Source: Reclinomonas americana ATCC 50394 (Eukaryota). Taken from it: a DNA stretch of 64,000 nucleotides. The notes beneath the pieces are model-generated. The model was given only the letters and a program-made list of their open reading frames with translations, had not been told where the DNA came from and ran no database searches. Positions 24,770 to 44,593 of this stretch are shown piece by piece. Numbering within the stretch: the first letter of the stretch is position 1; each line of letters opens with the position of its first letter. A program made the position numbers and the translations under genes. Location of the stretch: NCBI GenBank assembly GCA_048213135.1, contig PS015009.1:682001-746000 (forward strand). The letters are read 5' to 3'.

Positions 24770-26320
24770 TTGACCAAAGAATTGATAATAAATGCTGCAC
24801 CCCAGGGCGTAGAGATTGCCCTGCTGGAAGATAAAAAACTGGTGGAGCTGCATACCGAAAAAGCCGATGCCAGCTTTGGCGTGGGCGACCTTTACCTCGG
24901 GAAAGTCAAAAAACTCATTCCGGGACTGAACGCCGCCTTTATTGAAGTGGGGTTTGAAAAAGATGCCTTCCTGCATTATACCGACCTCAGCCCCTACGTA
25001 CGCTCCATACTCAAGTTCACCAACGAAGCCATACACGACAAATCCGAGAACGGATTCGATTTCTCCAAATTCAAAGTGGAACCCGAGATCGTAAAAACGG
25101 GTAAGATCGCCGAAGTACTCAGCGGCCGCCCCAACGTGCTGGTACAGATACTTAAAGAACCCATCGCCGCCAAAGGCCCACGCCTCAGTTGCGAACTGTC
25201 GCTGCCCGGCCGCTTTGTGGTGGTTACTCCTTTTAATGATATCATCGCGGTATCGCGTAAGATCCACTCCGCCGACGAACGCAAACGCCTGCACAAGATC
25301 ATTGAGGCCATCAAACCCAAAAACCTCGGTGTTATCGTACGTACGGCTGCAGAAGGTAAGCACACTGCAGAACTTCATGAAGACCTGCTGAGCCTGGTGG
25401 ATACCTGGAAGACGATCCAGCACAACCTCAAAGGCGCCGTACCTCCTGCCAAGATCCTCAGCGAACAGGGCAAAACCACCAGCATCCTCCGCGACCTGCT
25501 GAACGAGGACTTCAACAAGATTGTGGTGAATGACAAGAACATTTTCAGCGACACCAAGAATTATATCCAGCGTATTGCGCCTGACAAGGCCGATATCGTT
25601 TCTTATTACAACAACGGTTCGCCTATTTTCGACAGCTTCGGCATTACCAAACAGGTGAAAGCCGCTTTTGGTAAGACCGTGAACCTGCCCAGTGGCGCCT
25701 ACCTCATTGTTGAGCATACCGAAGCACTGCACGTGATAGACGTGAACAGCGGCTACAAAAGCGTAAGCAACAACCAGGAACAGAACGCGCTGGAGACCAA
25801 CCTGGAAGCCGCTGAAGAGATCGCCCGCCAGTTGCGCCTGCGTGACCTGGGAGGTATCATTGTGGTGGATTTCATCGATATGAAGCTGGCCGAGAACAAG
25901 AAAAAGCTCGCCGACGCGGTGGAACAATACATGCGCCCCGACAGGGCCAAGCACGCGGTACTGCCCATCAGCAAATTCGGGCTGATGCAGATCACCCGTC
26001 AGCGCATGAAGCCGGAGATGACCATCAACACCACCGAAGTGTGCCCCAGTTGCAATGGTACCGGCAAAATATCGTCCACCCTCATCCTGGAAGATGAGAT
26101 CGAAAAGAACCTCAGTTATCTCATCATGCAGCGCCACAAAGGCCTTACGGTGGAGGTACACCCCATACTGCACGCCTATCTTACCAAAGGCTGGTGGTTA
26201 TCCAAGCTCGCCAAATGGCGGCGCAAGTACAAGCAGAAGATCAAAGTGGTGCCGAATACGAATTACCACCTTACCGAGTTCCACTTTTTTGATGATAGTG
26301 ATGAAGAGATCAAACTGTAA
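24770..26320 (+). CDS. rng: Ribonuclease E/G family
   Basis: S1 domain, IDVNSG, QLRLRDLGGIIVVDFIDM, CPSCNGTG. Confidence 0.95.
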   Translation: MTKELIINAAPQGVEIALLEDKKLVELHTEKADASFGVGDLYLGKVKKLIPGLNAAFIEVGFEKDAFLHYTDLSPYVRSILKFTNEAIHDKSENGFDFSKFKVEPEIVKTGKIAEVLSGRPNVLVQILKEPIAAKGPRLSCELSLPGRFVVVTPFNDIIAVSRKIHSADERKRLHKIIEAIKPKNLGVIVRTAAEGKHTAELHEDLLSLVDTWKTIQHNLKGAVPPAKILSEQGKTTSILRDLLNEDFNKIVVNDKNIFSDTKNYIQRIAPDKADIVSYYNNGSPIFDSFGITKQVKAAFGKTVNLPSGAYLIVEHTEALHVIDVNSGYKSVSNNQEQNALETNLEAAEEIARQLRLRDLGGIIVVDFIDMKLAENKKKLADAVEQYMRPDRAKHAVLPISKFGLMQITRQRMKPEMTINTTEVCPSCNGTGKISSTLILEDEIEKNLSYLIMQRHKGLTVEVHPILHAYLTKGWWLSKLAKWRRKYKQKIKVVPNTNYHLTEFHFFDDSDEEIKL

Positions 26321-26338: not shown

Positions 26339-26375
26339 AAAGAGCCCTGGCAGAGATGCCGGGGCTCTTTGTTTT
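26339..26375 (+). terminator. Intrinsic terminator of rne/rng; left border of the island
   Basis: AAAGAGCCCTGGCA-GAGA-TGCCGGGGCTCTTT followed by GTTTT. Confidence 0.85.
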
Positions 26376-26440: not shown

Positions 26441-27310
26441 ATGGAAAATACTGATGTAATAAAAGAGATGAGGAAAATGCTTGTTTTGAAAGGATACAGT
26501 TCAAACACCATTCAGACATACCTTAATGAAATGTCGCAGTTTCTGAAAATAATTAAGGAAGTTCCTGCCAGCAGTTTTTCTGCCGAAAGGATAAAGGATT
26601 ATCTGCAATTCTGCCTGGAGAAGCAGGGGTTAAGTGAAAATACACTTCACAGCCGGATAAATGCACTTAAGTTTTATTATGAACAGGTATTGGGCAGAGA
26701 AAGACTCTTTTGGCAGATACCGCGTCCCAAAAAACCTTTGCTTTTACCAAAATTGCTGAATGAAAAAGAGCTGGCCCGTTTATTCAATGCCCTTACAAAC
26801 AGGAAGCATAAAGCAATGCTTTTTACGGTGTATAGCGCCGGATTGCGTGTCAGTGAACTTGCAGAACTGAAGATCAGCGATATTGACAGTCAACGGATGC
26901 AGATACTGATACGAAAAGCGAAAGGGAAAAAAGACAGGTATGTTAATTTAAGTCCTGTGCTGCTGGATATACTCCGGTCGTACATAAGCGTGTATAAGCC
27001 CCGCCCCCGGTTATACCTGTTTGAATCGGATCAGACCAATACAGCTTATCCAACGAGAACTGTTCAACAAATATTTTCCAATGCCAGACAAAGAGCGGGA
27101 ATTATGAAAGATGTTGGTATCCATAGCCTGAGGCACAGTTTTGCCACCCATCTGCTGGATAAGGGTACAGATATCAGGTACATAAAAGACCTGCTGGGAC
27201 ATTTTGATATCAAGACTACTGAGCGCTATCTCCATGTTTCAAAAAGGCAACTGGTGAATATTACCAGTCCGCTGGATGATCTTATGAATAAAGAGAATCT
27301 TAAATGGTAA
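26441..27310 (+). CDS. Tyrosine recombinase, IntI-related but lacking the integron-integrase insertion
   Basis: Catalytic R (GLR), K (KGKKDR), HSLRH, LLGH, Y (TERY); N-terminal YSSNTIQTY and ALKFYYEQVL, RPKK..LP, C-terminal SPLD. Confidence 0.93.
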   Translation: MENTDVIKEMRKMLVLKGYSSNTIQTYLNEMSQFLKIIKEVPASSFSAERIKDYLQFCLEKQGLSENTLHSRINALKFYYEQVLGRERLFWQIPRPKKPLLLPKLLNEKELARLFNALTNRKHKAMLFTVYSAGLRVSELAELKISDIDSQRMQILIRKAKGKKDRYVNLSPVLLDILRSYISVYKPRPRLYLFESDQTNTAYPTRTVQQIFSNARQRAGIMKDVGIHSLRHSFATHLLDKGTDIRYIKDLLGHFDIKTTERYLHVSKRQLVNITSPLDDLMNKENLKW

Positions 27311-27340
27311 TATCATTGATGCTATAAACAATGCGGTACG

Positions 27341-27427
27341 TATAACACTAAATCAATGATTTTTAAGATGTTAATGTTATAAAATTTAAATTGTAATATC
27401 ATATATTTATGTGTTAAATGCCATTGC
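27341..27427 (+). other. Putative attI-like primary recombination site (crossover G27413|TT)
   Basis: GTTAAATGCCATTGC (27413) matches 13/15 the reverse complement of cassette-1 3' end GCAACGGCATATAAC; no 19-bp hairpin upstream; TATAACA/TGTTATA inverted repeat and AAATCA-A-TGATTT palindrome. Confidence 0.65.
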
Positions 27428-27983
27428 TATCAGACGTTTCAAATAGCGACACTTGTATATCATCGTTACAGTTCAGCATTTCTATTTTAGTTTCACCCTT
27501 ATAGCCACGCTTCATATAATAGACAGCACAAGGAAACCCAAATGGGAAACCAGCTTTGCTTGCAGGGAGTGTATGTATTGAAACAAAACCGCCATAATCA
27601 AAAATCAGATTTAAAGTTCCTAAACTCTTAAACATTTTTGCCACAGGAACAAGTAAAACTATGTTATCAGCCAAAGCAAAAGAGTGTTCTAAAAATCTAT
27701 TGTAATCGCTGTATGGCGGATTTGTTACAATCCAATCTACTTTATCATTATAATCATAGTAGTTTTTACCATCAACAATTTCACACCAGTCTGTATCTTT
27801 TGGCAAATGCTTTAAAAATGCACCCTCACCTTTGCAAGGCTCTAAAACCTTACCATCAATATCAAACATCCCACAAATTTGTTTTGCCAACCAATCAGGA
27901 GTAAAAACAACATCATTTGGGTTTATGTGTGCATACTTCCCAACAATATAAGGGTTATGCTTTTGTCCGTTAATGCTTCCCAT
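27414..27983 (-). CDS. Small amino (probably N6-adenine) DNA methyltransferase (cassette 1, inverted)
   Basis: FTP, VLEPCKGEGAF (motif I), IVTNPPY (motif IV). Confidence 0.85.
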   Translation of the reverse strand: MGSINGQKHNPYIVGKYAHINPNDVVFTPDWLAKQICGMFDIDGKVLEPCKGEGAFLKHLPKDTDWCEIVDGKNYYDYNDKVDWIVTNPPYSDYNRFLEHSFALADNIVLLVPVAKMFKSLGTLNLIFDYGGFVSIHTLPASKAGFPFGFPCAVYYMKRGYKGETKIEMLNCNDDIQVSLFETSDSNGI

Positions 27984-28012
27984 ATTTTTAATTTTGTTTA
28001 ACTAACCGCAAC

Positions 28013-28115
28013 GGCATATAACAGTGGGTTTTCTGCTATACGGGCTGACGGAACATTGCCCAGCTTTCTGTTTTCCAAATTCCCGTACAGCAGAAAGCCC
28101 TGTACGTTGTAGGCA
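28013..28115 (+). repeat. attC-like element E1 (short, 37-nt loop)
   Basis: GGCATATAAC-agt-GGGTTTTCTGCTATACGGG ... CCCGTACAGCAGAAAGCCC-tgtac-GTTGTAGGCA. Confidence 0.85.
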
Positions 28116-28137
28116 ACCTTTTCGACACACTCTAATT

Positions 28138-28605
28138 ATGCAAGTTTTTAAGACAGACAAGAAACTCTTTTGGGCTAACGAACTGAAAAGTTGGTTATGG
28201 ACATTTGCCTTTGCAGCTTTGCTATATTTTGGTTTAAAGTATTATTCCTCGTTGACTAACGACAATATTATTGTTGGCGTCGTTGTTCTTTTGCTTCTTA
28301 AACTTGCAGACACATTGACCCAATACCATGTAAGAGAAATTCAAATTGACGGACAGAGGAAACAAATGACCGTGATACTAAATAGTAGAATGTCTGGTGA
28401 GAAAATAAAAAGATATGAATTAGGGGAAGTGACATCAGAATTAAAAAACAATTCGGGCCTGACAAAATATTTGTCTTCTCCATTTACCCTTAAAATATTT
28501 TTGAAACCAAAAGATGTATTTGTAATAAGCAATAGATATGGCTTTACATTAGACGCATTAACTTCGGTTGACAAAATACTAAAATCATTGAAAGCTCAAG
28601 CATGA
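28138..28605 (+). CDS. Hypothetical 2-TM membrane protein (cassette 2)
   Basis: ATG 28138, two hydrophobic segments; bounded by E1 and E2. Confidence 0.75.
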   Translation: MQVFKTDKKLFWANELKSWLWTFAFAALLYFGLKYYSSLTNDNIIVGVVVLLLLKLADTLTQYHVREIQIDGQRKQMTVILNSRMSGEKIKRYELGEVTSELKNNSGLTKYLSSPFTLKIFLKPKDVFVISNRYGFTLDALTSVDKILKSLKAQA

Positions 28606-28616
28606 CACAATAAGGC

Positions 28617-28822
28617 TGCCTACAACATTGGTATTTGCAAAAGCTGGGCAGACGGAACCCGTGTTTCAACTTTTGTTTTTCAATTTCGCTTCATATCGGG
28701 CAGGACGTTAATAATTTAGCTTTGTGCAAATCATCAACATAAATTTATAAATTTAGATTCAGGTAGCCGAGCTGACGACTATCTATTCCCCAGCCTTCGC
28801 AAATACCTGCTCGTTAGGTGCA
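28617..28822 (+). repeat. attC-like element E2
   Basis: TGCCTACAAC-att-GGTATTTGCAAAAGCTGGG ... CCCAGCCTTCGCAAATACC-tgctc-GTTAGGTGCA. Confidence 0.88.
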
Positions 28823-28873
28823 AGTATAGCGACCACCCCAATAGACAACGACAGCTAAACGAAAGCAAGCCCA

Positions 28874-29467
28874 ATGGAAATAGACAAATCAAAACAACTC
28901 ATTACTACATCTATAAATAAAGACACCGTTTTACTTTTCGATATGGACGGAACTTTGGTTGACACAGATTTTGCAAATTTTTTATCGTATCAAAAAGCGA
29001 TAGAATTAGTAATCGGTCTTGACAAGGAAATTCAATACAATCCTAATGAAAGGTTCAATCGTACAACTTTAAAAACAGTCCTGCCAAATTTGACAGAAAC
29101 TGAGTATGAAAAAATAATCCAGCAAAAAGACAAAAACTACAAAGAGCATTTATCACAAACAAAATTGAATAAACCTGTAGCAGATATTTTGCTACAATAT
29201 TCCAATACAAATAAAACGGTTTTAGTTACAAACTGCCGACAAGACAGAGCATTAATGACATTAAATTATTACAATCTTACAGACAAATTCAGTAACTTAA
29301 TATTCCGACAGATTTCAGACAATGAAAGCCGAATGAATAAATACAAATACGCATTATCAAGTTTGAACCTATCAGCTCAAACAGTTGTAGTTTTTGAAAA
29401 TGAAAAACAAGAAATTGAAGATGCTAAACTTGCAGGTATTTCGATTAATAACATTTTAAGCCTTTAG
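28874..29467 (+). CDS. HAD-superfamily phosphatase (cassette 3, gene 1)
   Basis: LLFDMDGTLVDT motif I, LVTN motif II, VFEN...AKLAG motif IV. Confidence 0.9.
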   Translation: MEIDKSKQLITTSINKDTVLLFDMDGTLVDTDFANFLSYQKAIELVIGLDKEIQYNPNERFNRTTLKTVLPNLTETEYEKIIQQKDKNYKEHLSQTKLNKPVADILLQYSNTNKTVLVTNCRQDRALMTLNYYNLTDKFSNLIFRQISDNESRMNKYKYALSSLNLSAQTVVVFENEKQEIEDAKLAGISINNILSL

Positions 29468-29470
29468 AAT

Positions 29471-30097
29471 ATGACACCTTTCACAATAGTACAAAACAAT
29501 TACTTGACACAGAACATTCAGGGGTTTTATCATACTGATTTCGGTGGCGTAGACCTGCCTAACAATCCAAATTATCTTTATAAGTTAAAAAATGACCCAC
29601 ACCATAATTGGTCAGACTTTAGAATCCAAGAAGCACAACAGCAATTATTGAGAGTACTACTTATTGACCTTCCAGAAATAGTAAGGCAAATCAATGTAAG
29701 TCCTTTAACAGTTTGTGTTGTACCAAGGGCTAAAGCTGATAATACTTATCGTCCCAATCAATTACTATTCAAAGCAACTATTAGAAATGCTGTAAATCAG
29801 TTAGGTAATAGTTTTAGAGACGGAACAAACTTTATTGTACGTCATACAAATACAAAGACTACGCATCTTAGAAAGCCGATGGAAGGCTTTGTAAATGATG
29901 GTGCCGAGCCGTATCCTGGTGTCAGTACTGCTACCTGTAATTTTTCAAGAAATATTAATGGACAAAATATTCTATTGATTGACGATATTTATACAAGAAC
30001 TGTAAACATCGATGAAGATATGATTCAATCATTATTGAATAGTGGGGCAAATTCAGTTACTTTCTATGCAATTGGAAACACTGTTTACAATCACTAA
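29471..30097 (+). CDS. Type I phosphoribosyltransferase, ComF-like (cassette 3, gene 2)
   Basis: VCVVP; ILLIDDIYTR PRPP-binding loop; GANSVTFYAIG. Confidence 0.85.
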   Translation: MTPFTIVQNNYLTQNIQGFYHTDFGGVDLPNNPNYLYKLKNDPHHNWSDFRIQEAQQQLLRVLLIDLPEIVRQINVSPLTVCVVPRAKADNTYRPNQLLFKATIRNAVNQLGNSFRDGTNFIVRHTNTKTTHLRKPMEGFVNDGAEPYPGVSTATCNFSRNINGQNILLIDDIYTRTVNIDEDMIQSLLNSGANSVTFYAIGNTVYNH

Positions 30098-30109
30098 AAC
30101 AAAATTCAA

Positions 30110-31105
30110 ATGAAGTACACAGACAACGCCATCAATATTATTACAGCAAAAACCTACAAGGGAATTGGCAGAGCATGGATTGTAAAAAATTTAAAAGGAA
30201 ATGAAAGTGCTGATACTATTGTTTCCTTATTGAATGGGAACTCAAAGGAAGATTATCTAATCACACTTGATGATTTTGAGTATGAAAAAAATAAAATAAT
30301 CAATCAAATAGAAGCTTTTGGAGAAAGCTGCGATGGAATTGTTGCAATTGGTGACAAGAGTTTTCCAAAGTATAGAGGAAATGTTAAGGAAAGTGAGCGA
30401 CCAATTTTCCTTTTTTATAAAGGCGATATAAATCTATTGGATATTGAAAATCACAACATCACCGTTATTGGACTTCTTAACCCAGACGAAGCCATTGAAA
30501 TTAGAGAAAAAAAAATAGTCGCTGAAATTGTCAATAAAGGTGTGGCAATTGTTAGCGGCTTAGCATTTGGTTGTGATAGTATTGCACACAGACAAGCACT
30601 TATTGGAGGAAAAACAATCGCAGTTCTACCAAGTCCCTTAAACAGTATTATGCCTGCAAAAAATAAAAGTTTAGCATTTGAGATAGTTGAAGATGGCGGA
30701 CTTTTAATTACTGAATATTATGACGAACATAAATCTGCAATGGATTTAAGCAGCCGATACAAAGACCGTGATAGATTGCAAGCATTATTTTGTGATACTA
30801 TTATTTTAGCCGCTAGCTATGCACAAGATTCTGCAACTCGTTGGAAAATTACAGACCAAAAATTGGACAGTGGTGCAAGATTGGCAATGGGATTTGCAAA
30901 AGAATATAATATTCCCCGAGCAGTAATGTATGACCAAAACACTGATTCAAATAATCCAATGTTTGATTTGAATCGACAATTAATTTCAGAACAAAATGTT
31001 ACTATTTTAACTCAAAAAAACTTGCAAGAAATTATCGACAAGATTAAGACTAAAGACACAAGAAGTAACAGCAATATTGCTTATCAAAAAGATTTGTTTA
31101 GCTGA
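30110..31105 (+). CDS. DprA/Smf (SLOG) family protein (cassette 3, gene 3)
   Basis: PIFLFYKGD, IVSGLAFGCDSIAHRQAL, TIAVLP, GLLITEY, RDRLQA, SGA. Confidence 0.9.
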   Translation: MKYTDNAINIITAKTYKGIGRAWIVKNLKGNESADTIVSLLNGNSKEDYLITLDDFEYEKNKIINQIEAFGESCDGIVAIGDKSFPKYRGNVKESERPIFLFYKGDINLLDIENHNITVIGLLNPDEAIEIREKKIVAEIVNKGVAIVSGLAFGCDSIAHRQALIGGKTIAVLPSPLNSIMPAKNKSLAFEIVEDGGLLITEYYDEHKSAMDLSSRYKDRDRLQALFCDTIILAASYAQDSATRWKITDQKLDSGARLAMGFAKEYNIPRAVMYDQNTDSNNPMFDLNRQLISEQNVTILTQKNLQEIIDKIKTKDTRSNSNIAYQKDLFS

Positions 31106-31129
31106 CGAGAGGGCGAGACCAAACACACC

Positions 31130-31333
31130 TGCACCTAACAGGGGGTTTGCCAAAATACGGGCGGACGGAAGTTATCTTCGGCTTTTTGTAATTCTATTGT
31201 GCTTCATATCGGGCTGGACATTATCTATTTAGCTTTTGTTGTTATCTTCATCTTCAGTTTTTCAATCATCATCGGTACCGTGCGGACGGAATACTAATTC
31301 CCGTACTTCGGCAAGCCCTGTCCGTTGGCTGCT
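31130..31333 (+). repeat. attC-like element E3
   Basis: TGCACCTAAC-agg-GGGTTTGCCAAAATACGGG ... CCCGTACTTCGGCAAGCCC-tgtcc-GTTGGCTGCT. Confidence 0.88.
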
Positions 31334-31349
31334 ACTCTAAAGCGACATA

Positions 31350-31901
31350 ATGAAACTTTTTCCATTTCTAAAAAAGAAGGACAACAAAATAGTTTACAAA
31401 TGTTCTTGTTGTGGACAAGAATATAACAGTGTGCCGCTTTGTTTTGGCGGAGACTTTCCAGACTATTATTTTTCTGTCCCACCTGAAGAAAGAAATGAGA
31501 GAATCGAATTACAACCAAGCCTTTGTGTCGTTGACAAAACACATTTTTTTCATCGTGGCAGGTTGACAATTCCTATCATCGACCACACAGAAAATTTAAT
31601 TTTCAACGTTTGGACTTCTATAAGTGAAGACAATTTTGGAATTAGAATGGATTTTTGGGAAGACCCGAAACGAGTTGACCAAGAGCCGTATTTTGGTTGG
31701 TTGCAGACAATTGTACCAACTTATGGCGACACATTAAATATTAAGACAATCGCAATCGAGCAAGAAGTTGGACTAATTCCAAATATTCATGTCATAGAAG
31801 AAAATCATCCGCTAAAGGTTGACCAAGACAATGGAATCACTTATAAAGAAGCATTAAAAAAAGTTGACGAAATATTACGAATGCATCATCAGAAAAATTG
31901 A
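31350..31901 (+). CDS. DUF2199-like protein (cassette 4)
   Basis: YKCSCCGQEY, FFHRGRLTIPI, YFGWL, HPL..DQ.NGIT. Confidence 0.75.
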   Translation: MKLFPFLKKKDNKIVYKCSCCGQEYNSVPLCFGGDFPDYYFSVPPEERNERIELQPSLCVVDKTHFFHRGRLTIPIIDHTENLIFNVWTSISEDNFGIRMDFWEDPKRVDQEPYFGWLQTIVPTYGDTLNIKTIAIEQEVGLIPNIHVIEENHPLKVDQDNGITYKEALKKVDEILRMHHQKN

Positions 31902-31920
31902 CCTCATTATTTGACCGAGC

Positions 31921-32120
31921 AGCAGCCAACATGCGGTTTGCCGCAATGCTGGCAGGCTCAAGAACAATCGGCGGCAAATCATTAATGGACTTCGGTCCCG
32001 GCGTACATTATTCTATTGAGCATTTGTATTAACTTCAGCATAAAATCAATGACCGGGCTTTTGTTTCAGCGGACGGATATAGAATCCTAGCACTGCGGCA
32101 AGCCCTGCCCGTTGGCTGCA
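31921..32120 (+). repeat. attC-like element E4
   Basis: AGCAGCCAAC-atg-CGGTTTGCCGCAATGCTGG ... CTAGCACTGCGGCAAGCCC-tgccc-GTTGGCTGCA. Confidence 0.85.
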
Positions 32121-32154
32121 AGGCGAAACAGTCCATTCAAAATTGAAATCTTAA

Positions 32155-32679
32155 ATGAAAAAGGTAATTCTTAATACGCTTATTTTACTTTCTACTTCAA
32201 CCGCATTTTCTCAGACGGAGAAATTGGAATTAAAGGTTATTGATAGCCTCAATTTCTCGAAGCAGGAACTATATGTTAGAGCGAGGGCATTTATTGCTTA
32301 TAGTTTTAAGAATTCCAAAAATGTTATTCAAATGGACGATAAAGACGCTGGGAAGATAATTTGCAAAGGAAGCATGACACCTGCCAGTAAGGGAACTTTT
32401 GGAATGACGTATCAAAACAATGTGGATTTCACCTTAACAATAGACGTGAGGGACGGTAAGTATAGAGCTCTAATTTCAGAAATATATCATTCAGGCCTTG
32501 GACCTAAGAAAGAATATGCAGGTGGGGCTATTGAAAACGAAAAGCCTGCCTGCGGTACGTTTTTTATTCCCAAAAAGGATTGGGATAAAATGAAAGAGGC
32601 AATAAAGGCAGAAGCATCCGCCTATTTAGACAGTTTAAAGACAGCGATGAATAAAGAAGTGAAAAAAGATGATTTCTAA
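32155..32679 (+). CDS. Exported DUF4468-like protein (cassette 5)
   Basis: Signal peptide; SKQELY..A, VIQMDDKDAGKII, IDVRDGKYR. Confidence 0.7.
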   Translation: MKKVILNTLILLSTSTAFSQTEKLELKVIDSLNFSKQELYVRARAFIAYSFKNSKNVIQMDDKDAGKIICKGSMTPASKGTFGMTYQNNVDFTLTIDVRDGKYRALISEIYHSGLGPKKEYAGGAIENEKPACGTFFIPKKDWDKMKEAIKAEASAYLDSLKTAMNKEVKKDDF

Positions 32680-32692
32680 CTCCTAACTGCCC

Positions 32693-32894
32693 TGCTGCTA
32701 ACATGGGCTTGGCGTAATTGGGGCTTGACGGAAAAACTTTCAGCTTCTGTACACATCCAGGCATTAGCTATGGGCCTGACCGTTTACTTAAAGTCATACG
32801 TTCTATTTAAATATTTCGTTTCTTTATAGCATCAAAGGCCGGGCGGACATAGGGTTAATTCCCCAACTACGCCAAGCCCTCGACGTTAGCTGTA
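32693..32894 (+). repeat. attC-like element E5
   Basis: TGCTGCTAAC-at-GGGCTTGGCGTAATTGGGG ... CCCCAACTACGCCAAGCCC-tcgac-GTTAGCTGTA. Confidence 0.88.
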
Positions 32895-32933
32895 ACCTTG
32901 GAGCGACACTACAAAAAATCAACAACAGACAAA

Positions 32934-33626
32934 ATGAGTATGAAGAAAATAGGATTAATAGGTGGAATTAGTTGGGTTTCGACAATAGATTATTACAAGT
33001 TCATCAACGAAGGAGTAAATACAAAATTGGGTGGACTAAATTTTGCTGAATGTATTATTTACTCTTTAAATTTTGGAGACATACAAGCAAAAAGTTGGGA
33101 CAATTCATTTGAACTACTATTGACCGCATGTGAGAGTTTGAAAAAAAGTGGTGTGGACAGTATAGTTTTGTGTGCTAATACTGCACATCTTTTTGCAGAC
33201 AAGCTTCAAGAAACAATCAATTTGCCAATTATTCATATTGGAGTAGAAACTGCAAAAGCTGTTAATAAACAAGGATATAAAAAAGTAGGACTGCTAGGAA
33301 CAAAATTCACAATGGAAATGGACTTCTACAGAAATAAACTTGAAGAGTATGGGCTTGAGGTTTTGATACCACAAAAACAAGAGACAAGAGATTACATTCA
33401 ACACACTATAAAAGAAGAATTAGGTATAGGATTTACTAATCCAGAGACAAAGAAAAACTACATTTCAATTGTAAAAGAATTGGTTGAGAATGGAGCTGAG
33501 TGTATTATTTTAGGTTGTACAGAAATACCAATGTTAATAAGTCAAGACGATTTTTCAACACCAATTTTTGACACGACAAAAATTCATTCACAAGCCATCA
33601 TTGAATATATTGTCTCAGAGAATTGA
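32934..33626 (+). CDS. Aspartate/glutamate racemase, RacX/YgeA-like (cassette 6)
   Basis: IGLIGGISW, CANTAH, LLGT, ILGCTEIP. Confidence 0.93.
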   Translation: MSMKKIGLIGGISWVSTIDYYKFINEGVNTKLGGLNFAECIIYSLNFGDIQAKSWDNSFELLLTACESLKKSGVDSIVLCANTAHLFADKLQETINLPIIHIGVETAKAVNKQGYKKVGLLGTKFTMEMDFYRNKLEEYGLEVLIPQKQETRDYIQHTIKEELGIGFTNPETKKNYISIVKELVENGAECIILGCTEIPMLISQDDFSTPIFDTTKIHSQAIIEYIVSEN

Positions 33627-33652
33627 GACAATATTAGACAGAAAAGAAAGGT

Positions 33653-33855
33653 AGCAGCCAACATGGGGTTTTCTGCTATGCTGGCTGAAGAATATATACT
33701 GATCATCCCATTCGCTTATCAGCTGTAGTTCGGGCTGAACGGAGAAACCCCAGCAACAGAATATAACATCAACTGCATTAAATTTACTCAGCAACAGTTC
33801 GGGCTGACGAATAACGGAATATCAGCACAGCAGAAAGCCCTGGCCGTTCGCGGCA
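33653..33855 (+). repeat. attC-like element E6
   Basis: AGCAGCCAAC-atg-GGGTTTTCTGCTATGCTGG ... TCAGCACAGCAGAAAGCCC-tggcc-GTTCGCGGCA. Confidence 0.87.
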
Positions 33856-33900
33856 AGCCGCCAAAGCTAAACTGTAATAACTTTTAAAGTGTCAGGTACA

Positions 33901-34407
33901 ATGACAAGAAATTTAGCGATTGCAAACCGACTTCGAGAGGTTCTTCTAAATGGAAAATGGATTGCCAACACAAACTTCAAAGAACAAATATTAAGCGTCA
34001 GTTGGGAACAGGCTATCCAAAAAGTCGGGAATTTAAATACGATTGCTTTGCTAACTTTTCATATAAACTATTATCTGCAAGGAATTCTGAACGTTTTTAA
34101 TGGCGGGCAACTTGAAATAAGAGACAAATACAGCTTTAACCTTCCAGAAATTAAGTCTGAAACAGATTGGAATGCATTAGTCAACGATTTCATAAATAAT
34201 TCTGAACTGTTTGCAAACAAAGTTGAACAAATGGCTGACAGCATGTTTGACCAACCATTTCTCGACGAAAAATACGGAAGTTATTTACGAAATATTGAAG
34301 GCGTTATTGAGCACAGCTATTATCATTTAGGGCAAGTTTCGTTAATAAGAAAGATGATTATTCAGAAACAGAATCTCAAAAGTGATAATAGTGAATCAAC
34401 AGAATAG
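33901..34407 (+). CDS. DinB/DUF1572-like protein (cassette 7)
   Basis: NTIALLTFHINYY and IEHSYYHLGQ DinB-type His motifs. Confidence 0.8.
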   Translation: MTRNLAIANRLREVLLNGKWIANTNFKEQILSVSWEQAIQKVGNLNTIALLTFHINYYLQGILNVFNGGQLEIRDKYSFNLPEIKSETDWNALVNDFINNSELFANKVEQMADSMFDQPFLDEKYGSYLRNIEGVIEHSYYHLGQVSLIRKMIIQKQNLKSDNSESTE

Positions 34408-34438
34408 AAAATTTGAGGCAGGTTTTACAAGAAAAGCC

Positions 34439-34475
34439 AGCCGCTAACATTGGTATTGCCCGCTGGTGGCAAGCA
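34439..34475 (+). repeat. Truncated attC-like element E7 (left end only)
   Basis: AGCCGCTAAC-att-GGTATTGCC, similar to the E2 left end; no right arm or GTT core seen. Confidence 0.6.
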
Positions 34476-34514: not shown

Positions 34515-35069
34515 ATGAAAAAATCAATTTTGATATTAATCAGTCTTTTCAATATACTTATTAGTCAGGCGAGACAAACCGAATCAGATGTTAAAACATT
34601 AAAAGCTGACATAAACGCTAATGGACAAGTCGATGTAATAAAACCAGGCACGAATGCTCTTTCACTGAGCATTGACAATAAAAGCTATACTATTTCATAT
34701 GGTCTTTTAGGTTTTGAATCTTTATCTGAATTAAATTTTACAAATAATATTCTAACAATATCTGGATATAACAGCGGAACCGGTGCTTATAGCTGGGTTT
34801 ATAAATTCAGAAATAATAAATTAACTAAAAAAATAGAACTGATTGGATATGACGATTTCAATAAATGGGTTTCAGGAAATATTACAACAAGTATAAATAC
34901 CATAACAAATAAGTATAAAGTGATATTGGAAGAATATAACCATGCTAAACAGGAAATGGAAACTACAAAACATACAGGAAAAATTTCAATCAGGAGAATT
35001 GGGCTGACAGACATTAAGAAAGAAGACGTAGATAAACTTACTGGAATTGGCATGAAATACTGGAAGTAA
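34515..35069 (+). CDS. Hypothetical exported protein
   Basis: ATG 34515, MKKSILILISLF signal-like N-terminus; AT-rich like the cassettes. Confidence 0.7.
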   Translation: MKKSILILISLFNILISQARQTESDVKTLKADINANGQVDVIKPGTNALSLSIDNKSYTISYGLLGFESLSELNFTNNILTISGYNSGTGAYSWVYKFRNNKLTKKIELIGYDDFNKWVSGNITTSINTITNKYKVILEEYNHAKQEMETTKHTGKISIRRIGLTDIKKEDVDKLTGIGMKYWK

Positions 35070-35579: not shown

Positions 35580-36110
35580 TCAGAGTTTTACACTCACCCT
35601 AAAAGTTTTGGCATCTGTTGCCTCCAGCCATAACAGCGCCCTTTTTCCGTTCTCCATCTGAACGAGAAAACAATGGTACTTAATCCCTGCAGCCAGGTCA
35701 TCTGTTATGGAGGCGAAATGCACAAAAGAGTTTTTAGTCAGGTAGCCTGTCATTCTTTGCAGGTCCTGGCTGGTATTGCATTTGTCAAACTGGTCTTTAT
35801 CGAAGCTCAGGGTGCTGATAACAGAGGCTGTGCCTCTCAGGTCAACAGGGATCTTTTCGTCCTTTCCGCTCATATTGTACCACTCCGCCACCTGCTTTTT
35901 ATCATTCTGGGTTATGATCAGGGCCAGGTCCACGCTTGATTTATTGTTCTTCGCCTCTTCAGTTGTAAATACTTTTTTCTGTGATATACCCAGGTAACTG
36001 TTGGCGCCAACCCGGGGGTTCAGGGTAGCGGTAAAACTGGTCAGTTTTTGCGCCAAGCCCGGCAAAACGGTCATTATGCTTAAAAAAGTAACTACAATTG
36101 ATTTCAACAT
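35580..36110 (-). CDS. Hypothetical exported protein
   Basis: 176-aa ORF with a signal-like N-terminus. Confidence 0.65.
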   Translation of the reverse strand: MLKSIVVTFLSIMTVLPGLAQKLTSFTATLNPRVGANSYLGISQKKVFTTEEAKNNKSSVDLALIITQNDKKQVAEWYNMSGKDEKIPVDLRGTASVISTLSFDKDQFDKCNTSQDLQRMTGYLTKNSFVHFASITDDLAAGIKYHCFLVQMENGKRALLWLEATDAKTFRVSVKL

Positions 36111-36293
36111 GATGATTTGATTTTTTAGGATGCAATTTAATATTCATTAAAGTAAATTGCAATATTTTAAATTACTTTAGGGTTAGGCTCTTCTGGCAAT
36201 TTTGATATGCCTGTCAGCACCGGCGCCAGCTTCACGCGATGATATTTTTCGTATTTTCAGTCGGCATCACCTGCAACAATAAAACATGACCAT

Positions 36294-36863
36294 ATGAGAA
36301 AAATAATTTCCTTCATGCATATATCCCTCAATGGCTTTGTAGCCGGCCCGAATGGTGAAATGGACTGGATCATCATCAATGAGGAGCTCTTCGATCATGT
36401 TGGTAAACGGATAAGCAAAGGCGACACGGCCTTATACGGACGGGTAACTTATGATATGATGGAAAGCTACTGGCCAACCGCGGGAGACAAACCCACTGCA
36501 AGTAAACACGATATTGAACACTCCAGGTGGTACAGCCAAGTCCACAAAGTGGTATTATCAAAAACCATGAAAGACACAGACCTGGCCAACACCACCATCA
36601 TCAGCGACAATCTTCCGGGCGAATTAAATAAAATAACACAGCAGCCGGGCGAAGACATCCTGCTTTTTGGCAGCCCTACGGCAACACATGCACTCATACA
36701 GCTGGGACTGATCGACGGCTACTGGCTGTTCGTTAACCCGGTTATTCTCGGGCAGGGCATTCCATTATTTACAGGCATCAAAGACAAAGTAAAACTGAAA
36801 CTGCTGACCACCCACCAATTTGCGTGCGGGGTAACTGAACTGAATTATACCGTAGTAAGATAA
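36294..36863 (+). CDS. Dihydrofolate reductase / RibD C-terminal family protein
   Basis: SLNGFVAGPNG, YGRVTY, GLID, PVILGQGIPLF. Confidence 0.9.
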   Translation: MRKIISFMHISLNGFVAGPNGEMDWIIINEELFDHVGKRISKGDTALYGRVTYDMMESYWPTAGDKPTASKHDIEHSRWYSQVHKVVLSKTMKDTDLANTTIISDNLPGELNKITQQPGEDILLFGSPTATHALIQLGLIDGYWLFVNPVILGQGIPLFTGIKDKVKLKLLTTHQFACGVTELNYTVVR

Positions 36864-36934
36864 AACGAACACCGATATTGGCTTTTCTCAATAACCTGCC
36901 CATGAAAACTGAGCACCCCTAATTTTAAAGCCAT

Positions 36935-37366
36935 ATGAATACAAAAGCACAGATCAAACAGTATATTGACAGCCAGCCTGAACCCAAACGCGGCGACATG
37001 CAAAACCTGCATGGCATCATCCAGGAAATAATGCCTGCAGGTGAACTTTGGTTTCTCGATGGCAAAGACAGCAACAATAAAACCGTTTCCAACCCCAACA
37101 TAGGGTACGGGCGCTACACCATACAATACGCAGGCGGAAAAACCAGGGAGTTTTACCAGGTTGGCATGAGTGCCAACACAACCGGTATATCTGTCTATAT
37201 CCTTGGCATCGACGATAAAACCTACCTGGCCCAAACCTATGGCAAAAAACTGGGCAAGGCCAGTGTTACGGGGTATTGTATTAAGTTCAAAGCGCTGAAA
37301 GATATAAATGTTGATGTACTGAAAGAAGCCATCCTCTACGGGGTTAAAAACTCGCTCCGAAACTAA
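36935..37366 (+). CDS. DUF1801 (YdhG-like) protein
   Basis: YIDS, IGYG.Y, LGK....CIKFK.L.D. Confidence 0.75.
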   Translation: MNTKAQIKQYIDSQPEPKRGDMQNLHGIIQEIMPAGELWFLDGKDSNNKTVSNPNIGYGRYTIQYAGGKTREFYQVGMSANTTGISVYILGIDDKTYLAQTYGKKLGKASVTGYCIKFKALKDINVDVLKEAILYGVKNSLRN

Positions 37367-37513
37367 TATTACAACCAGCACTGGAAATAATATCCGGCTG
37401 ACAATAGCCATTTTCCCGTTCCTCTTCACAAATGGTATTTGTTACACCTCCGTGCCAGTGGGTATTTCCCTGTTATGCCCCGCCCCCTACATTTACCGCA
37501 CTAAAAATCAATC

Positions 37514-38410
37514 ATGAACTTTCGATTCCTTTTAACCCTGGTATTGGCCGCATGTTCCATCAGCCTGTCCGCACAATCGTCCCTTACGCAAAAGTTTCGC
37601 AAAAATGTGCCGGTGCAAATGACGTACTATGAAAGGTTATACGACGCCAACAACACCCGCACCTCCAAAAACAAACTGAAAAAGACCAAAGAGTTCACCG
37701 ACAGTGAAGTAGAAGAAATATTCACCCGTCTCGGCATCGATTCGGAGATTCCCTCAAAACTCAATAACCAGGACAGGGAAGCACTGCAACATTACGTGGT
37801 GTATGAGATCTCCGATTTTTCTTTAATGGGATATAAATTCTCATTGATCTGGATACCCTATGACGAAAATAAACACATGCCCAAAAACATGCAGCCACCC
37901 ACAAAAGACGGCACCATCTTCTATACTTATACCAAGCACCTTTCCTTTAATGGTAAAGATGCTTCCGGCAATCTTCTTGCCAAAGCAGGCACACCACTTT
38001 CCGCGCCGGAACCCATAAACGTGAGTGTTGCCGACATGAGCCAGTTCCTCAATGGTGGAAAAGAGAAAATGAAAGACATACCACAGGTATTCAAAGCCGG
38101 CGCCGATCCGCAACTCGTAAAACAGGGCGAGGCTGATTATTATGCCATGCAGTCCCGCTTCCCGAATATTTCAAAAGAGTACACCCAGTTCAGGGATAAG
38201 GTATTCGCACAGGTACTGGAAGACAGGAAGACCGGCACCCAGGCCAACCTCTTCATGAAAAAAGAAAGAGAGGGCGGACAAAAATTGCTCGATGAGTGGC
38301 ATTCCAAAATCGACGCCTTCCTCAAAAAGTACAGTGCCATCATCACTCCCGAAGCTGAAGCCGAAATAAGTGGCTGGCACAACCAGGCACTGCATTATAT
38401 CGATTATTAA
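37514..38410 (+). CDS. Hypothetical exported protein
   Basis: 298-aa ORF with a signal peptide. Confidence 0.7.
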   Translation: MNFRFLLTLVLAACSISLSAQSSLTQKFRKNVPVQMTYYERLYDANNTRTSKNKLKKTKEFTDSEVEEIFTRLGIDSEIPSKLNNQDREALQHYVVYEISDFSLMGYKFSLIWIPYDENKHMPKNMQPPTKDGTIFYTYTKHLSFNGKDASGNLLAKAGTPLSAPEPINVSVADMSQFLNGGKEKMKDIPQVFKAGADPQLVKQGEADYYAMQSRFPNISKEYTQFRDKVFAQVLEDRKTGTQANLFMKKEREGGQKLLDEWHSKIDAFLKKYSAIITPEAEAEISGWHNQALHYIDY

Positions 38411-38411
38411 A

Positions 38412-38441
38412 CTGTCATCCCCGGCGAAGCGAGGTATCTCT
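38412..38441 (+). repeat. REP-like dispersed intergenic repeat
   Basis: TGTCATCCCCGGCGAAGCGAGGTATCT resembles the reverse complement of 63295-63320 (TGTCATACCGAGGTAACGAGGTATCT). Confidence 0.55.
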
Positions 38442-38701
38442 CTGGTGCAAATTATTCCGGGGGCTTTCTGCTCCCATACTCCCATCATCACCTGCAGGCG
38501 CTATCCGTTGCAACCTGCGCTGCGCTGCGGTTTTCACTGCTATCGCCCAGCCTGTGAGCGGTTGTGCGTTATTCAGCAATTTCCAATGAAATAACGCGGC
38601 ATAAGGAAACCGGACAGCCTTACTATATTATCTGGTTTTGTAACTTTATCTGGCGCCTAAACTGATTTTTTACGCTTATAGCTAAACTTAAATAAACAGC
38701 A

Positions 38702-39430
38702 GTGCACCTATCAAATGAAATACAAAAACGCCTCGTCAAGCTTACATCAACTATAAAATTAGCTTCAACAATTGATGGTACATTTCCTGGTGAATACTCC
38801 TTTTGCCATATGCCGGGAAGAAGTTTCAGGACAGAGTTCGCATCAACGAACCAGGAGTTTTCACTGGTTCTTTATGAACGAACTGATCAGCAGACCTACG
38901 AGAATTGCTATGCGAGAGGTTTATTTACCGATCTTGACAGGCTCGCAACCGTTATCCACTTCTGGGTTGACAAACAAAAAGATATTTCAGAAATCAAAAG
39001 TAATTTTGACGAGCTCAAATTGTATTCAGACTTTGATACCAGAAATCCGAATCCGGATATCGACAAAGCATGGACAAAAGTCAGGAATATGTTCTTTAAT
39101 GATACAGGGTTCTGGAAGCAAACTGAATGGGAGGGACGGTATTTGAATATGCTGAATGAAGCAAAACGTCATAAAGCTTTTGAAAACTATTTCCCATTCA
39201 CAAGCCATTATTGGTTAAGATTCAGCATTGACAAATACATCAGGGAAACATGGACACTCAGCACTTATATTATTCCGACGATGTACAGTGATGAAGTTCC
39301 GGATACACTTGGGAAGTTTTATGTTTCATTCAGCGACGAACCAAGGGGTGGGCAGTTCTTTGAAACAGTAAAGGAAGCGCTTGACTTCTATGCCGCTAAA
39401 TTAAAAGAAACCAGTCCAACAAAATGGTGA
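38702..39430 (+). CDS. Hypothetical protein (DUF6193-like motif)
   Basis: YFPFTSHYWLRFS motif; AT-rich. Confidence 0.55.
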   Translation: MHLSNEIQKRLVKLTSTIKLASTIDGTFPGEYSFCHMPGRSFRTEFASTNQEFSLVLYERTDQQTYENCYARGLFTDLDRLATVIHFWVDKQKDISEIKSNFDELKLYSDFDTRNPNPDIDKAWTKVRNMFFNDTGFWKQTEWEGRYLNMLNEAKRHKAFENYFPFTSHYWLRFSIDKYIRETWTLSTYIIPTMYSDEVPDTLGKFYVSFSDEPRGGQFFETVKEALDFYAAKLKETSPTKW

Positions 39431-39454
39431 CAATAAAAAACCAACACGTGTAAG

Positions 39455-39958
39455 GTGAAATACAGAACTATCGCACTTTTAATATTGATCTTCAATATTG
39501 CTGTAGTAGGTTTACTTTTGCTTGACAGCTTTCTCCCTCCAGGCAAAGGCAGGCCCGCTTTAGTAGACGACAAAAGAATTGAAAGAAGTGCCGGAAAAGT
39601 CGGGTCAAGGGGCCACTCCACTTTTTTTATACTGGATGAAAGGGGCACAAAATATAAAGTACCTGATGATGAATTCGAAAGATATTCACCAGGGGATTCA
39701 TTCTATGTGTTTCGGTCAGTGTTCTTTGGAAAAGCTATAAGAATTAAACCGGTGAAGCCAGAGCACAACGAGGTACTCAATATCGGAGTGATCAACTCAT
39801 CGGTATTCGGTTTGCTCATTTGCCTGGCTACCATTGCCATCTCGGTAGTTCTTTTATATAAGGTAATAATAAAGAATATTACCAGTTATCGAGCCAGCCT
39901 GTTTACAATCTGGCTAACGATAATAATTATTGCTTTTTACATGATATTTCAGTCATAA
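39455..39958 (+). CDS. Hypothetical membrane protein
   Basis: Three hydrophobic segments. Confidence 0.65.
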   Translation: MKYRTIALLILIFNIAVVGLLLLDSFLPPGKGRPALVDDKRIERSAGKVGSRGHSTFFILDERGTKYKVPDDEFERYSPGDSFYVFRSVFFGKAIRIKPVKPEHNEVLNIGVINSSVFGLLICLATIAISVVLLYKVIIKNITSYRASLFTIWLTIIIIAFYMIFQS

Positions 39959-40035
39959 TCATATTGGTTTTTCGGGAAAACCTCCACTTTCTATGATATA
40001 AAGCGGTCAAATTATATAAAGCTAAATCCTTCCTC

Positions 40036-40623
40036 ATGGGGCTTGACAGTATAGAATTATTAATGGAAATAGAGAATTACTTCAATATCCGTGTCCCGGA
40101 TGCTGAAGCAGAGAAAATATATACCGTGCAGTCGATGGTAGATTCCGTCGCAGCTCATTTACACATATCCGAAAATTCATTTACACTCCGGGACGATATA
40201 TTCAGAAAGATTGCAGATGCCCTGCCCGCCAGTAGTGAAATAAAATCCGGAATACTGCTATCCTCTTCTGTAGAAGATTATATCAGTTTTGATAATAGAG
40301 CTTTGTGGAAAGCACTTGAAGCAAGCATAGGGCTCAAAGTGCCTGCACCTGATTACAAATGGGCATTTTCATCAAACCTTAATGAGAGACTTTTGAAAAT
40401 ACTCCATTCCCGTCCAAAAAAGGAAAAAGAAATAATCACCTTTGAACAGCTTACGGCTGCCATATGCTCCTGCAACTACAGCAAACTGATTGACAGAACA
40501 AACATTAAAACCCTGTACGAAATATATGTAGTTGTTGCTGGTATTACTTGTGATAAAATAGGTGAAGATATTTACAACATTACACCAGACAAGTCTTTTA
40601 CAAATGACCTTGGGGTAGATTAA
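40036..40623 (+). CDS. Acyl-carrier-protein-like domain protein
   Basis: MGLDSIELLMEIENYFNIRVPDAEAEKI at the N-terminus; SFTNDLGVD at the C-terminus. Confidence 0.7.
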   Translation: MGLDSIELLMEIENYFNIRVPDAEAEKIYTVQSMVDSVAAHLHISENSFTLRDDIFRKIADALPASSEIKSGILLSSSVEDYISFDNRALWKALEASIGLKVPAPDYKWAFSSNLNERLLKILHSRPKKEKEIITFEQLTAAICSCNYSKLIDRTNIKTLYEIYVVVAGITCDKIGEDIYNITPDKSFTNDLGVD

Positions 40624-40685
40624 AGAGATTACAGTATGGCTTACACTGTTGAAATTATGACTACCTTACCAGAAATTAGTCTTTA

Positions 40686-41123
40686 ATGAGAGTTGCGCTT
40701 TTATTTATGTTGCTTCTGTTCCTGGCTCCTTCCTCCAAAGCCCAACTGCTGAAAGGACAATGGGAAGGATACTTTACCGATAATGGCATAAAATACCCAA
40801 TGATACTGGAGTTTATTCTTAATGCCGATACCACCTACAGCGTATTCAGCTACTCTCAAAACCTGGGCATCCCCTTCCTTCCTAAAAAAGACAGCGCCTA
40901 TGTTTGTAAGGTGTCGTACCAATTTACACCGCCAGACGAGGTTTACCTGGAAGAGATTGAGGTCGTGTCCCCATCCAGCGCCACACAGGATTGTTTTCAG
41001 AAAATGAATCTTAAGATCGTTCAACAAGATGGCAAACTGATGCTGACCGGCAAATGGAAAACCAACTCCGGGCGCTGCCATTCATCCGGGAAAGTAACAT
41101 TTACTAAAATAAACGACGGTTAA
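40686..41123 (+). CDS. Hypothetical exported protein
   Basis: Signal peptide; GQWEG and LTGKW beta-rich motifs. Confidence 0.65.
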   Translation: MRVALLFMLLLFLAPSSKAQLLKGQWEGYFTDNGIKYPMILEFILNADTTYSVFSYSQNLGIPFLPKKDSAYVCKVSYQFTPPDEVYLEEIEVVSPSSATQDCFQKMNLKIVQQDGKLMLTGKWKTNSGRCHSSGKVTFTKINDG

Positions 41124-41133
41124 AAAAAATATC

Positions 41134-41481
41134 ATGGCTTACGATATTCAGCTTGCTGACAAGCTAAGAGCATACCTCGCCGGCTTCCCCCGATTGAAGA
41201 TTGAAGAGAAGAAAATGTTCAGCGGACTGGCGTTTCTGGTGAATGGCAAAATGTGTGTTAACGTAAGCAACAACAACCTGATGTGCCGCTTCAACCCTGC
41301 TCTACAGGAAGAGGTATCGGAACACCATGCCTTTGAACCCATGATCATGAAAGGTAAACAGCTGCAGGGTTATTGCTACGTAAGACCCGAAGGTTTTAAA
41401 TCAAAAAAGGATTTTGAGTACTGGGTAAATCTTTGCCTGGCGTATAATAAAGATGCTCAATCATCTAAAAAGAAAAAATAA
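41134..41481 (+). CDS. TfoX N-terminal domain protein
   Basis: EEKKMFSGLAFLVNGKM. Confidence 0.85.
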   Translation: MAYDIQLADKLRAYLAGFPRLKIEEKKMFSGLAFLVNGKMCVNVSNNNLMCRFNPALQEEVSEHHAFEPMIMKGKQLQGYCYVRPEGFKSKKDFEYWVNLCLAYNKDAQSSKKKK

Positions 41482-41504
41482 ACACCCAACTATATCAGTC
41501 ACTG

Positions 41505-42104: not shown

Positions 42105-42153
42105 ACGATGACGCCAATGTTGTACATTTGAATTTCGCAAACAGCCTTTTCTC

Positions 42154-43092: not shown

Positions 43093-43187
43093 CCACCGCT
43101 ATTTGAATTTCACAAACAATGGATTGATGCTTGCAATTGTCCTGCCTGCAAACCGCCGCAACTTTGTGGTATAAAAAATTGCAGCAA

Positions 43188-44561: not shown

Positions 44562-44593
44562 ATTTGGGCCGCTATTCAACCCGCAACTAACTT

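Follow-up and report, generated by a model that had tools for sequence, protein, structure and literature searches.

Can an integron-type cassette array be run by a tyrosine recombinase that lacks the I2 insertion of the integron integrase IntI? The question is raised by the 64,000-nucleotide stretch of DNA analysed here (the window), which comprises positions 682,001 to 746,000 of contig PS015009.1 in the Reclinomonas americana ATCC 50394 assembly GCA_048213135.1 and in which a recombinase gene (26441-27310, + strand) is followed on the same strand by a row of hairpin sites. The source assembly (G000) amounts to 108 Mb in 16441 contigs, and the window is therefore regarded as a bacterial contig within a larger or mixed assembly. 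We read the locus as a sedentary platform of integron type in a bacterium of Chitinophagaceae type, with an IntI-related, I2-less tyrosine recombinase as its driver, and we put the probability of this reading at roughly 80%. The locus works like an integron, yet its recombinase is not an IntI.

The recombinase open reading frame (ORF) is intact and encodes 289 amino acids (aa) that match PF13495 and PF00589. In an alignment of 111 sequences, the catalytic residues R136, K161, H228, R231 and Y263 were invariant and H254 was nearly so, in agreement with the full R-K-H-R-H-Y set noticed in an earlier, sequence-only reading of the window. The same reading had claimed that I2 is missing, and the alignment confirms this: the span from the R of the KDR motif to the H of the HxLR motif comprises 63 aa in the window protein, 102 aa in IntI (20/20 rows) and 64-68 aa in XerC/D (12 rows), and the 39-residue IntI insertion is absent. 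The alignment with VchIntIA (2a3v) splits at this place (query 187/196 versus chain 186/234). The profile comparison that had been proposed gave a match to the integron-integrase model TIGR02249 in two pieces, with 187.9 bits and under the cut-off of 265. The best NCBIfam score was that of the XerA profile (211 bits, under its cut-off of 220), and the XerC and XerD profiles were both missed (177 versus 335 and 171 versus 330 bits). An alignment-based structural model with a predicted local distance difference test score (pLDDT) of 92.5 has no helix at the I2 position, and it superposes on VchIntIA 2a3v with a Z score of 22.5 and a root-mean-square deviation (rmsd) of 2.8 over 256 aa. In the fold search, archaeal XerA (4a8e; Z 22.8, rmsd 9.1) ties with VchIntIA, and no ranking between them is made. 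A fold predicted from the single sequence was discarded (pLDDT 41). By three tests, namely the missing I2, the TIGR02249 score below cut-off and the phylogeny described below, the window recombinase is outside IntI.

The hairpin sites were searched with a geometry-only detector, which found six AAC...GTT sites in the 64-kb window, all of them between 28020 and 33848 and on the + strand, and none on the - strand; array and recombinase are co-oriented, as the sequence-only reading had stated. Together with an attI-like site, whose crossover GTT starts at 27413, the six hairpins define seven cassettes on the integrase strand, and the GC content drops past the integrase from about 0.48 to 0.33-0.39. 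That the locus is a cassette array is virtually certain. A fixed-register detector (3/6 window sites found) and a loose duplex detector (heavy background, with 93 upstream and 118 downstream matches) were dropped, and the final site finding combined the geometry detector with an arm profile.

Whether the cassettes move as units was judged from their junctions, by comparing the 7 nucleotides (nt) before the AAC of a site with the R' of the preceding site and with the R' of the site itself. In the first set of related loci, a match of at least 6/7 to the preceding R' was observed in 36/49 junctions versus 3/49 for the own R', and none of 10000 permutations reached the observed junction mean. In the held-out loci, which were fetched later and whose genome stretches were picked before the site search, the cassette-swap signature was present in 96 of 110 junctions versus 8 of 110 in the control. 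The window junctions score 7, 7, 7, 5 and 4 of 7, the best being closest to the integrase. The junction rule sets the first crossover at GTT 27413-27415, the exact bond within GTT being beyond its resolution. In the junction profile, the complementarity of the ends returns at positions 9-12 after a break at positions 7-8 (0.67-0.84 versus 0.22-0.39), and the R stem of the excised circle is therefore longer than in classical attC.

The placement of the crossover is confirmed by near-identical strains (>99% identity), contigs of which (X1, X2 and X4) were obtained from 4 of the 24 listed runs. As far as 27415, across the RNase E/G and integrase genes, X1 shows 6 and X2 9 differences from the window, and there both leave it; beyond this point X1 continues with 153 and X2 with 1155 letters foreign to the window. 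X1 returns to the window at 31317 (site 3), preceded by 987 other letters, X4 at 31323 (also site 3) and X2 at 32096 (site 4). Elsewhere, two genomes whose upstream neighbours differ have an identical 912-nt cassette, and one cassette is present three times within a single array (L094). Cassettes thus start at a GTT, extend to the GTT of the following hairpin and swap whole, with the crossover inside GTT; new cassettes enter at the attI-like site, and the far end decays. The locus contributes a strain-level record of attI exchange for an enzyme without I2 and without the additional N-terminal domain discussed below. None of the strain contigs links attI to a later site, and excised circles are not visible in contigs; cassettes 1-3 are nearly uncovered in the four strain runs, which proves nothing alone. 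No near-identical strain turned up in genome and metagenome scans, and comparison of the window cassettes with the other loci gave no DNA match and one match at the protein level.

The attI-like site (27340-27415, + strand), at the end of which X1 and X2 diverge, contains an IHF-like box (27349-27361), a core CATAWATTTA block (27400-27409) and the crossover GTT (27413-27415), which lies 102 nt behind the integrase gene. Relatives have such a site 100-220 nt past the integrase stop codon, and the region is kept over about 75 bp in them, including the core block just 5' of GTT. The IHF-like box lies 50-51 nt before the crossover, and 17/21 attI regions score at least 8/9 against the IHF consensus, versus 3% of shuffles. 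A Bacteroidetes promoter pattern, with its last base relaxed, fits attI in 9/21 loci and not in the window.

The enzyme and the sites were also found together among relatives. In the first set (at least 65% identity and 2 kb downstream), sites were present in 8/8 loci, and none was found in 128 kb of upstream sequence. Among held-out loci with at least 60% identity and 2 kb downstream, same-strand sites were present in 20/20, as expected if orthologues generally adjoin such arrays, with 83 sites in 199 kb, 0 on the opposite strand and one site-bearing upstream region in 24. The distinct cassettes mostly carry one sense gene (121/135). It is very probable that the I2-less enzyme family drives the arrays, and the I2-less system is common in Bacteroidota; phage records held just 4 distant matches. 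In a sub-branch at about 48-51% identity (L157, L152, L033), the sites are located upstream on the opposite strand, which is the classical integron layout.

The sites themselves share one architecture. Among distinct arm pairs (n = 189), a mean of 15.3 of 19 positions pair, versus 9.5 when arms are swapped between sites. The sequence-only reading had described the hairpins as bulge-less; this holds along the whole stem for 5/6 window sites, while the sixth carries a single additional base next to the loop, and in the family an ungapped stem of 19 bp accommodates just 153 of the 210 distinct sites. In free folding, 51/64 sites were bulge-free. In 150/153 ungapped sites the top strand has an A-C mismatch at stem position 12-14, equivalent to a G-T wobble in the bottom strand, and the polarity is strong (A-C 219, C-A 10). 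The bottom strand folds more stably in 49/64 sites. Loops are about 10 to 150 nt long, and site lengths cluster near 124 and 190 nt (198/210). A further observation, made on window 28624-33848 and the family sites, is that length classes near 60, 124 and 190 nt lie about 65 nt apart, and that in the 190-nt class a GGGC..GAC motif recurs near positions 20, 70 and 140; the length steps and the repeated motif may record how sites are built.

Several points weigh against the proposed reading. Among the sites, 57/210 do not fit the ungapped stem and 13/64 fold with a bulge, and the bulge-free share is an upper estimate, as the site profile was trained on ungapped sites. In the window, junctions 5 and 6 agree at just 5/7 and 4/7. 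The held-out set includes duplicates and near-relatives (L124=L017, L128=L019, L133-L138), and adjacency weakens with distance, to 11/17 loci at 45-60% identity and 4/11 below 45%, which is partly a limit of the detector. The activity of the enzyme is predicted from sequence, and the Riemerella paper considered below (PMC13148043) names no recombinase. The remaining points concern a domain that the sequence-only reading had overlooked, for most close relatives carry an N-terminal domain without counterpart in the window copy. It is found in all 21 first-set loci at 67% identity or more (two of them frameshifted). In two loci (L218 and L219) a stop codon lies inside it, so short forms may be decay products; and the source assembly is a mixed one of 108 Mb, in which another contig carries part of a related recombinase.

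These last points bear on the explanation that survives best beside our own, which is that the family drives the arrays while the 289-aa copy is a truncated relic needing the N-terminal domain, the strain differences having arisen through a long form acting in trans or through homologous block exchange. In its favour, 100/118 of the nearest homologues exceed 350 aa and carry the domain, of about 80-120 aa and with a W-x6-W motif, and the array-heading enzymes of one fetched relative set all have it. The source assembly also has a second two-site cluster on contig C2, the two sites being complete (L244, G000:C2:1895041-1898067), and in L218 and L219 the in-frame stop comes directly after the second Trp of the motif; a start codon follows next, and both short enzymes head seven-site arrays. 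The relic explanation is opposed by other short forms: a 300-aa enzyme (L220) heads seven sites, and at the protein level two clusters, of 16 and 31 members and with Sediminibacterium among them, preserve a 315-aa form. In the window, the interval from the RNase E/G gene to the integrase start holds no remnant of the domain, and no long-form paralogue was found in G000. The attI ends vary among strains that have this short gene and its upstream join in common, and for this reason the short copy, judged from its sequence, is probably still active. We consider the relic explanation unlikely. The domain is probably accessory, because short forms also head arrays. Its profile matches were weak (DUF5710 in 10/25 members; HARP in 4/25, best E 0.022; 4o66 at E 0.42) and it otherwise falls in unnamed Atlas clusters, so that 'HARP-like' is a lead only.

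For the I2-less recombinase acting on these sites we propose a mechanism modelled on that of IntI, in which the enzyme would join double-stranded attI to the folded single strand of a hairpin site. A folded single-strand substrate is likely by analogy with integron biology (as described in PMC4792948), and indirect evidence for it is provided by arm covariation, by the strand-polar mismatches and by the Riemerella integration event considered below. The site would present an R box, consisting of AAC/GTT plus about 7 flanking pairs and fully paired in the excised circle, and then an asymmetric loop, usually of 2-3 versus 5 nt, followed by the 19-bp L stem. The strand would be told by the mismatch 18-19 nt from the crossover (G-T wobble in the bottom strand, A-C in the top strand), which would replace the flipped-out bases read by I2; the asymmetric loop, with the wobble, could stand in for extrahelical bases as the strand mark. 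We favour the wobble as strand mark, by a narrow judgement. The junction would probably be resolved by replication, and the IHF-like box, 51 nt before the crossover, points to help from a host bending protein in attI assembly. An alternative is that double-stranded sites or cruciforms are recombined by the classical two-exchange route, the hairpin being merely a recognition feature. The enzyme is Xer-like in the I2 region, and the block that is known to act on the second strand exchange (PMC4792948) would be missing in the absence of I2 and of flipped-out bases. Against this route, the arms covary instead of keeping their sequence, the loops of about 10-150 nt are too variable for a fixed duplex core, the mismatches are strongly strand-polar and the sites are all in one orientation; it is improbable, though better supported than the two explanations that follow.

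Canonical IntI occurs above cut-off in 18/61 genomes of a phylum sample, and the sites could in principle be orphan cassette clusters of such an enzyme encoded elsewhere, with the adjoining recombinase incidental. This is largely refuted: searches of G000, of 5 genomes of the fetched loci (4 of them with arrays) and of 121 family genomes gave no IntI above cut-off, and the attI-like site lies at a fixed short distance behind the I2-less gene, with adjacency in 20/20 loci.

The phylogenetic position of the I2-less recombinase was examined in trees from which insert columns had been removed, with Bacteroidota XerC/D as a narrow and long-branched outgroup and with archaeal XerA left out. The main tree used 48 of 81 rows and the quick tree 28 of 81; L107 (a non-member) and 8 near-duplicates were excluded. 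Four groups were recovered in the 48-row tree, namely IntI (100/99), the window clade (100/99), a second array-linked clade (95/90) and most IS91-linked enzymes (93/96), with no supported branching order among them. The window enzyme is set apart from Bacteroidota XerC/D at 100/99. In the 28-row tree all I2-less enzymes fall on one side, at 86 in the Shimodaira-Hasegawa-like approximate likelihood-ratio test. A grouping of IntI with the window clade was rejected by the approximately unbiased test (p = 0.003), and one of IntI with all array enzymes was not rejected (0.116). On these sequence comparisons the lineage is outside IntI, but closer to IntI than to Bacteroidota XerC/D. The sequence-only reading had suggested a sister or ancestral lineage; the trees favour the sister position, and the ancestral half of the suggestion was not upheld. 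The idea that the enzyme is an accessory recombinase of an IS91-type element whose rolling-circle transposase moves the cassettes draws on short (277-290 aa) I2-less relatives that precede IS91 transposases, sometimes inside arrays (L111, L248), and it is very improbable, since the window array holds no transposase gene and the IS91-linked enzymes form a separate branch heading no arrays.

The IS91-associated recombinases (y4qK type) do resemble the window enzyme in lacking I2, in their similar length and at 36-46% identity, but they are paired with an IS91 transposase and have no attI or array of their own; no such transposase lies directly downstream of the window recombinase. Units of a short I2-less recombinase with an IS91 transposase were also seen within arrays or between sites (L111; L067-L084; L248:4560-13206), often reversed and repeated, and they look like selfish cassettes.

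With classical integrons (IntI1, IntI2, VchIntIA) the window system shares the PF13495 SAM-like domain, an attI beside the gene, fold-back cassettes with AAC...GTT, the crossover at GTT, cassette gain on the attI side, a single sense gene in most cassettes, and defence or resistance cargo. Unlike them, the window family has no I2, mostly no extrahelical bases, a polar wobble, a longer L stem of 19 bp, an array downstream of the gene, an IHF-like box in attI, usually the extra N-terminal domain, and site lengths of about 124 and 190 nt. It also has no perfect Bacteroidetes SOS box, as CTAA-N5-TTAG was found upstream of 0/94 integrases. SOS control of the window gene is not supported, its CTAA-N3-TTAG being unlike the N5 box of PMC8565304. 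The Treponema integrons with inverted integrase, as described in PMC4889954, have a true IntI that matches the IntI-specific profile, whereas the window enzyme is without that region. XerC, XerD and XerA likewise lack I2, but the window enzyme has its own cassette array and no dif role is suggested for it; integration of the CTX phage by XerCD, as presented in PMC4792948, is a precedent for bulge-free single-strand recombination without I2.

Parts of this family have been seen before. The 'integron-like' tyrosine recombinase subgroup of Smyshlyaev 2021 (PMC8138268) can be compared with the window enzyme by its description: many Bacteroidetes proteins were grouped there, the insertion was reported as not fully conserved and was called essential to integron function, and in the accessible sections the I2-less members are given no arrays. 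Cury 2016 (PMC4889954) mentions four intermediate recombinases near few attC sites, which were judged not to be IntI, and IntegronFinder 2.0 (PMC9024848) reports a complete integron in Salinibacter and little else in Bacteroidetes. Integron finders define the integrase by I2, and the whole class therefore goes uncounted. The literature searched, which covered few subscription journals, held no published description of this I2-less system. The origin of I2 and attC is openly stated as a chicken-and-egg problem (PMC4792948), and a natural I2-less system makes it testable what I2 adds and how a second cut is avoided; a 289-aa recombinase reading DNA shape over sequence could also serve as a compact genetic tool.

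The same hairpin sites bound resistance genes. Homologues of the window enzyme at 50% identity on plasmids are TnpF or 'xerD' genes beside tet(X), and in the tet(X)/ermF papers this neighbour is labelled XerD or a transposon gene, its role being left open in the accessible text (PMC8693923, PMC7473080, PMC11194056). The homology around tet(X) in three plasmids begins at the G of GTT. The sites delimit tet(X2), aadS, ere(D) and catB, and in Bacteroidota plasmids also estT and lnu(I); in plasmids of Empedobacter and Bacteroides, tet(X2) forms a complete cassette adjoining those of catB, aadS and ere(D) (L238:2931-4445; L239:2215-6330; L240:3754-4003), and three junctions of L239 match at 7/7 by eye. 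In Acinetobacter-type plasmids, tet(X5) and tet(X3) stand first behind an I2-less TnpF and an attI-like stretch (L085:4516-5371; L241:6028-6883) and begin at the GTT just behind TnpF; a search past tet(X) gave no complete hairpin in either plasmid. These plasmid copies of TnpF are cut at the N-terminus, and the TnpF of L085 belongs to the second array-linked clade (98/86 with L047).

With a lowered threshold, a Riemerella plasmid array (L247:1997-17487) was found to have 11 same-strand sites, with 12 on the plasmid, and its cargo comprises aadS, ere(D), tet(X), lnu(I), a toxin-antitoxin pair, blaOXA, estT and aph(3'). Its junctions match at 6/7 or better in 8/11 cases versus 1/11 for the own ends, and no family recombinase is present among the annotated genes of the plasmid. 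According to PMC13148043, natural transformation of Riemerella led to integration of aph(3')-IVb without homology, together with 27 nt of upstream and 140 nt of downstream sequence; the paper mentions an attC-like stem-loop and an unknown mechanism, and names no recombinase. For the matching gene on the L247 (RCAD0416) plasmid, the predicted cassette limits are 29 + 138 nt, which share the total of 167 nt with the published 27 + 140 nt and are offset by two bases within the common GTT. The predicted cassette, as defined on the plasmid sequence, exactly matches the published integration unit. The I2-less system appears to string together Bacteroidota resistance genes, including tet(X); it would explain homology-free gene uptake in Riemerella, and gives surveillance a recognisable signature. 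We lean slightly towards a wider proposal: that this is a second integron class, sister to IntI and shuffling cassettes without I2 or extrahelical bases, under guidance of the wobble; that it is the overlooked assembler of Bacteroidota resistance islands, including those with tet(X) before that gene escaped to Acinetobacter and enterics; and that the 289-aa enzyme, which lacks both I2 and the N-terminal domain, represents the smallest working form of the class and serves as a living model for the state before I2.

The cargo of the window array itself is mixed. Cassette 1 (27413-28105) carries a methyltransferase-like ORF antisense to the integrase (27414-27983, - strand; weak PADLOC MTase_II matches, E about 4e-4) and an 89-nt hairpin site (28020-28108), and its right end agrees with the attI junction at 6/7. 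The other cassettes are on the + strand. Cassette 2 (28106-28812) has a membrane-type ORF of 155 aa (28138-28605), without a Pfam or NCBIfam match, and a 192-nt site (28624-28815; junction 7/7). Cassette 3 (28813-31323) encodes a HAD hydrolase and ShosT-like and ShosA/DprA-like proteins (28874-31105; PADLOC ShosT E 7e-8, ShosA E 2e-43), which probably form, as predicted from these matches, an anti-phage toxin-antitoxin module plus phosphatase; its site has 190 nt (31137-31326; junction 7/7). Cassette 4 (31324-32110) consists of a DUF2199 gene (31350-31901) and a 186-nt site (31928-32113; 7/7), cassette 5 (32111-32884) of a DUF4468 gene (32155-32679) and a 188-nt site (32700-32887; 5/7), and cassette 6 (32885-33845) of an amino-acid racemase gene (32934-33626; TIGR00035 above cut-off) and a 189-nt site (33660-33848; 4/7). 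Cassette 7 (33846-34470) has an ORF of 168 aa (33901-34407) and ends in a decayed half-site, of which just the left arm is seen (AAC at 34446, 20 bits, no partner arm); its end agrees with its own start at 5/7. The following low-GC ORF (34515-35069, + strand; GC 0.34), with no flanking hairpin found, is probably the fixed remnant of an eighth cassette, as judged from position and GC.

The sequence-only reading had suggested that co-orientation could allow read-through transcription into the cassettes; a terminator scan listed none between integrase and array on the + strand, but the gene of cassette 1 is antisense. A sigma-70 promoter scan stayed at chance level (8 versus 6.3). Upstream of the element lies its chromosomal neighbour, an RNase E/G gene (24770-26320, + strand; PF10150, E 1.5e-100), which is joined to the integrase in X1 and X2; a GC-rich hairpin followed by a T run (26339-26375, + strand), seen by eye and not listed by the scan, is its probable terminator. 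Rfam gave no RNA family at the hairpin sites, and its only hit in the window was a tRNA gene (RF00005) at 53112-53193 on the - strand. Beyond the array, the region 35580-45000 holds small, mostly co-oriented accessory genes (RibD-like, DUF1801, TfoX and others) without hairpin sites, and it is perhaps an old variable region.
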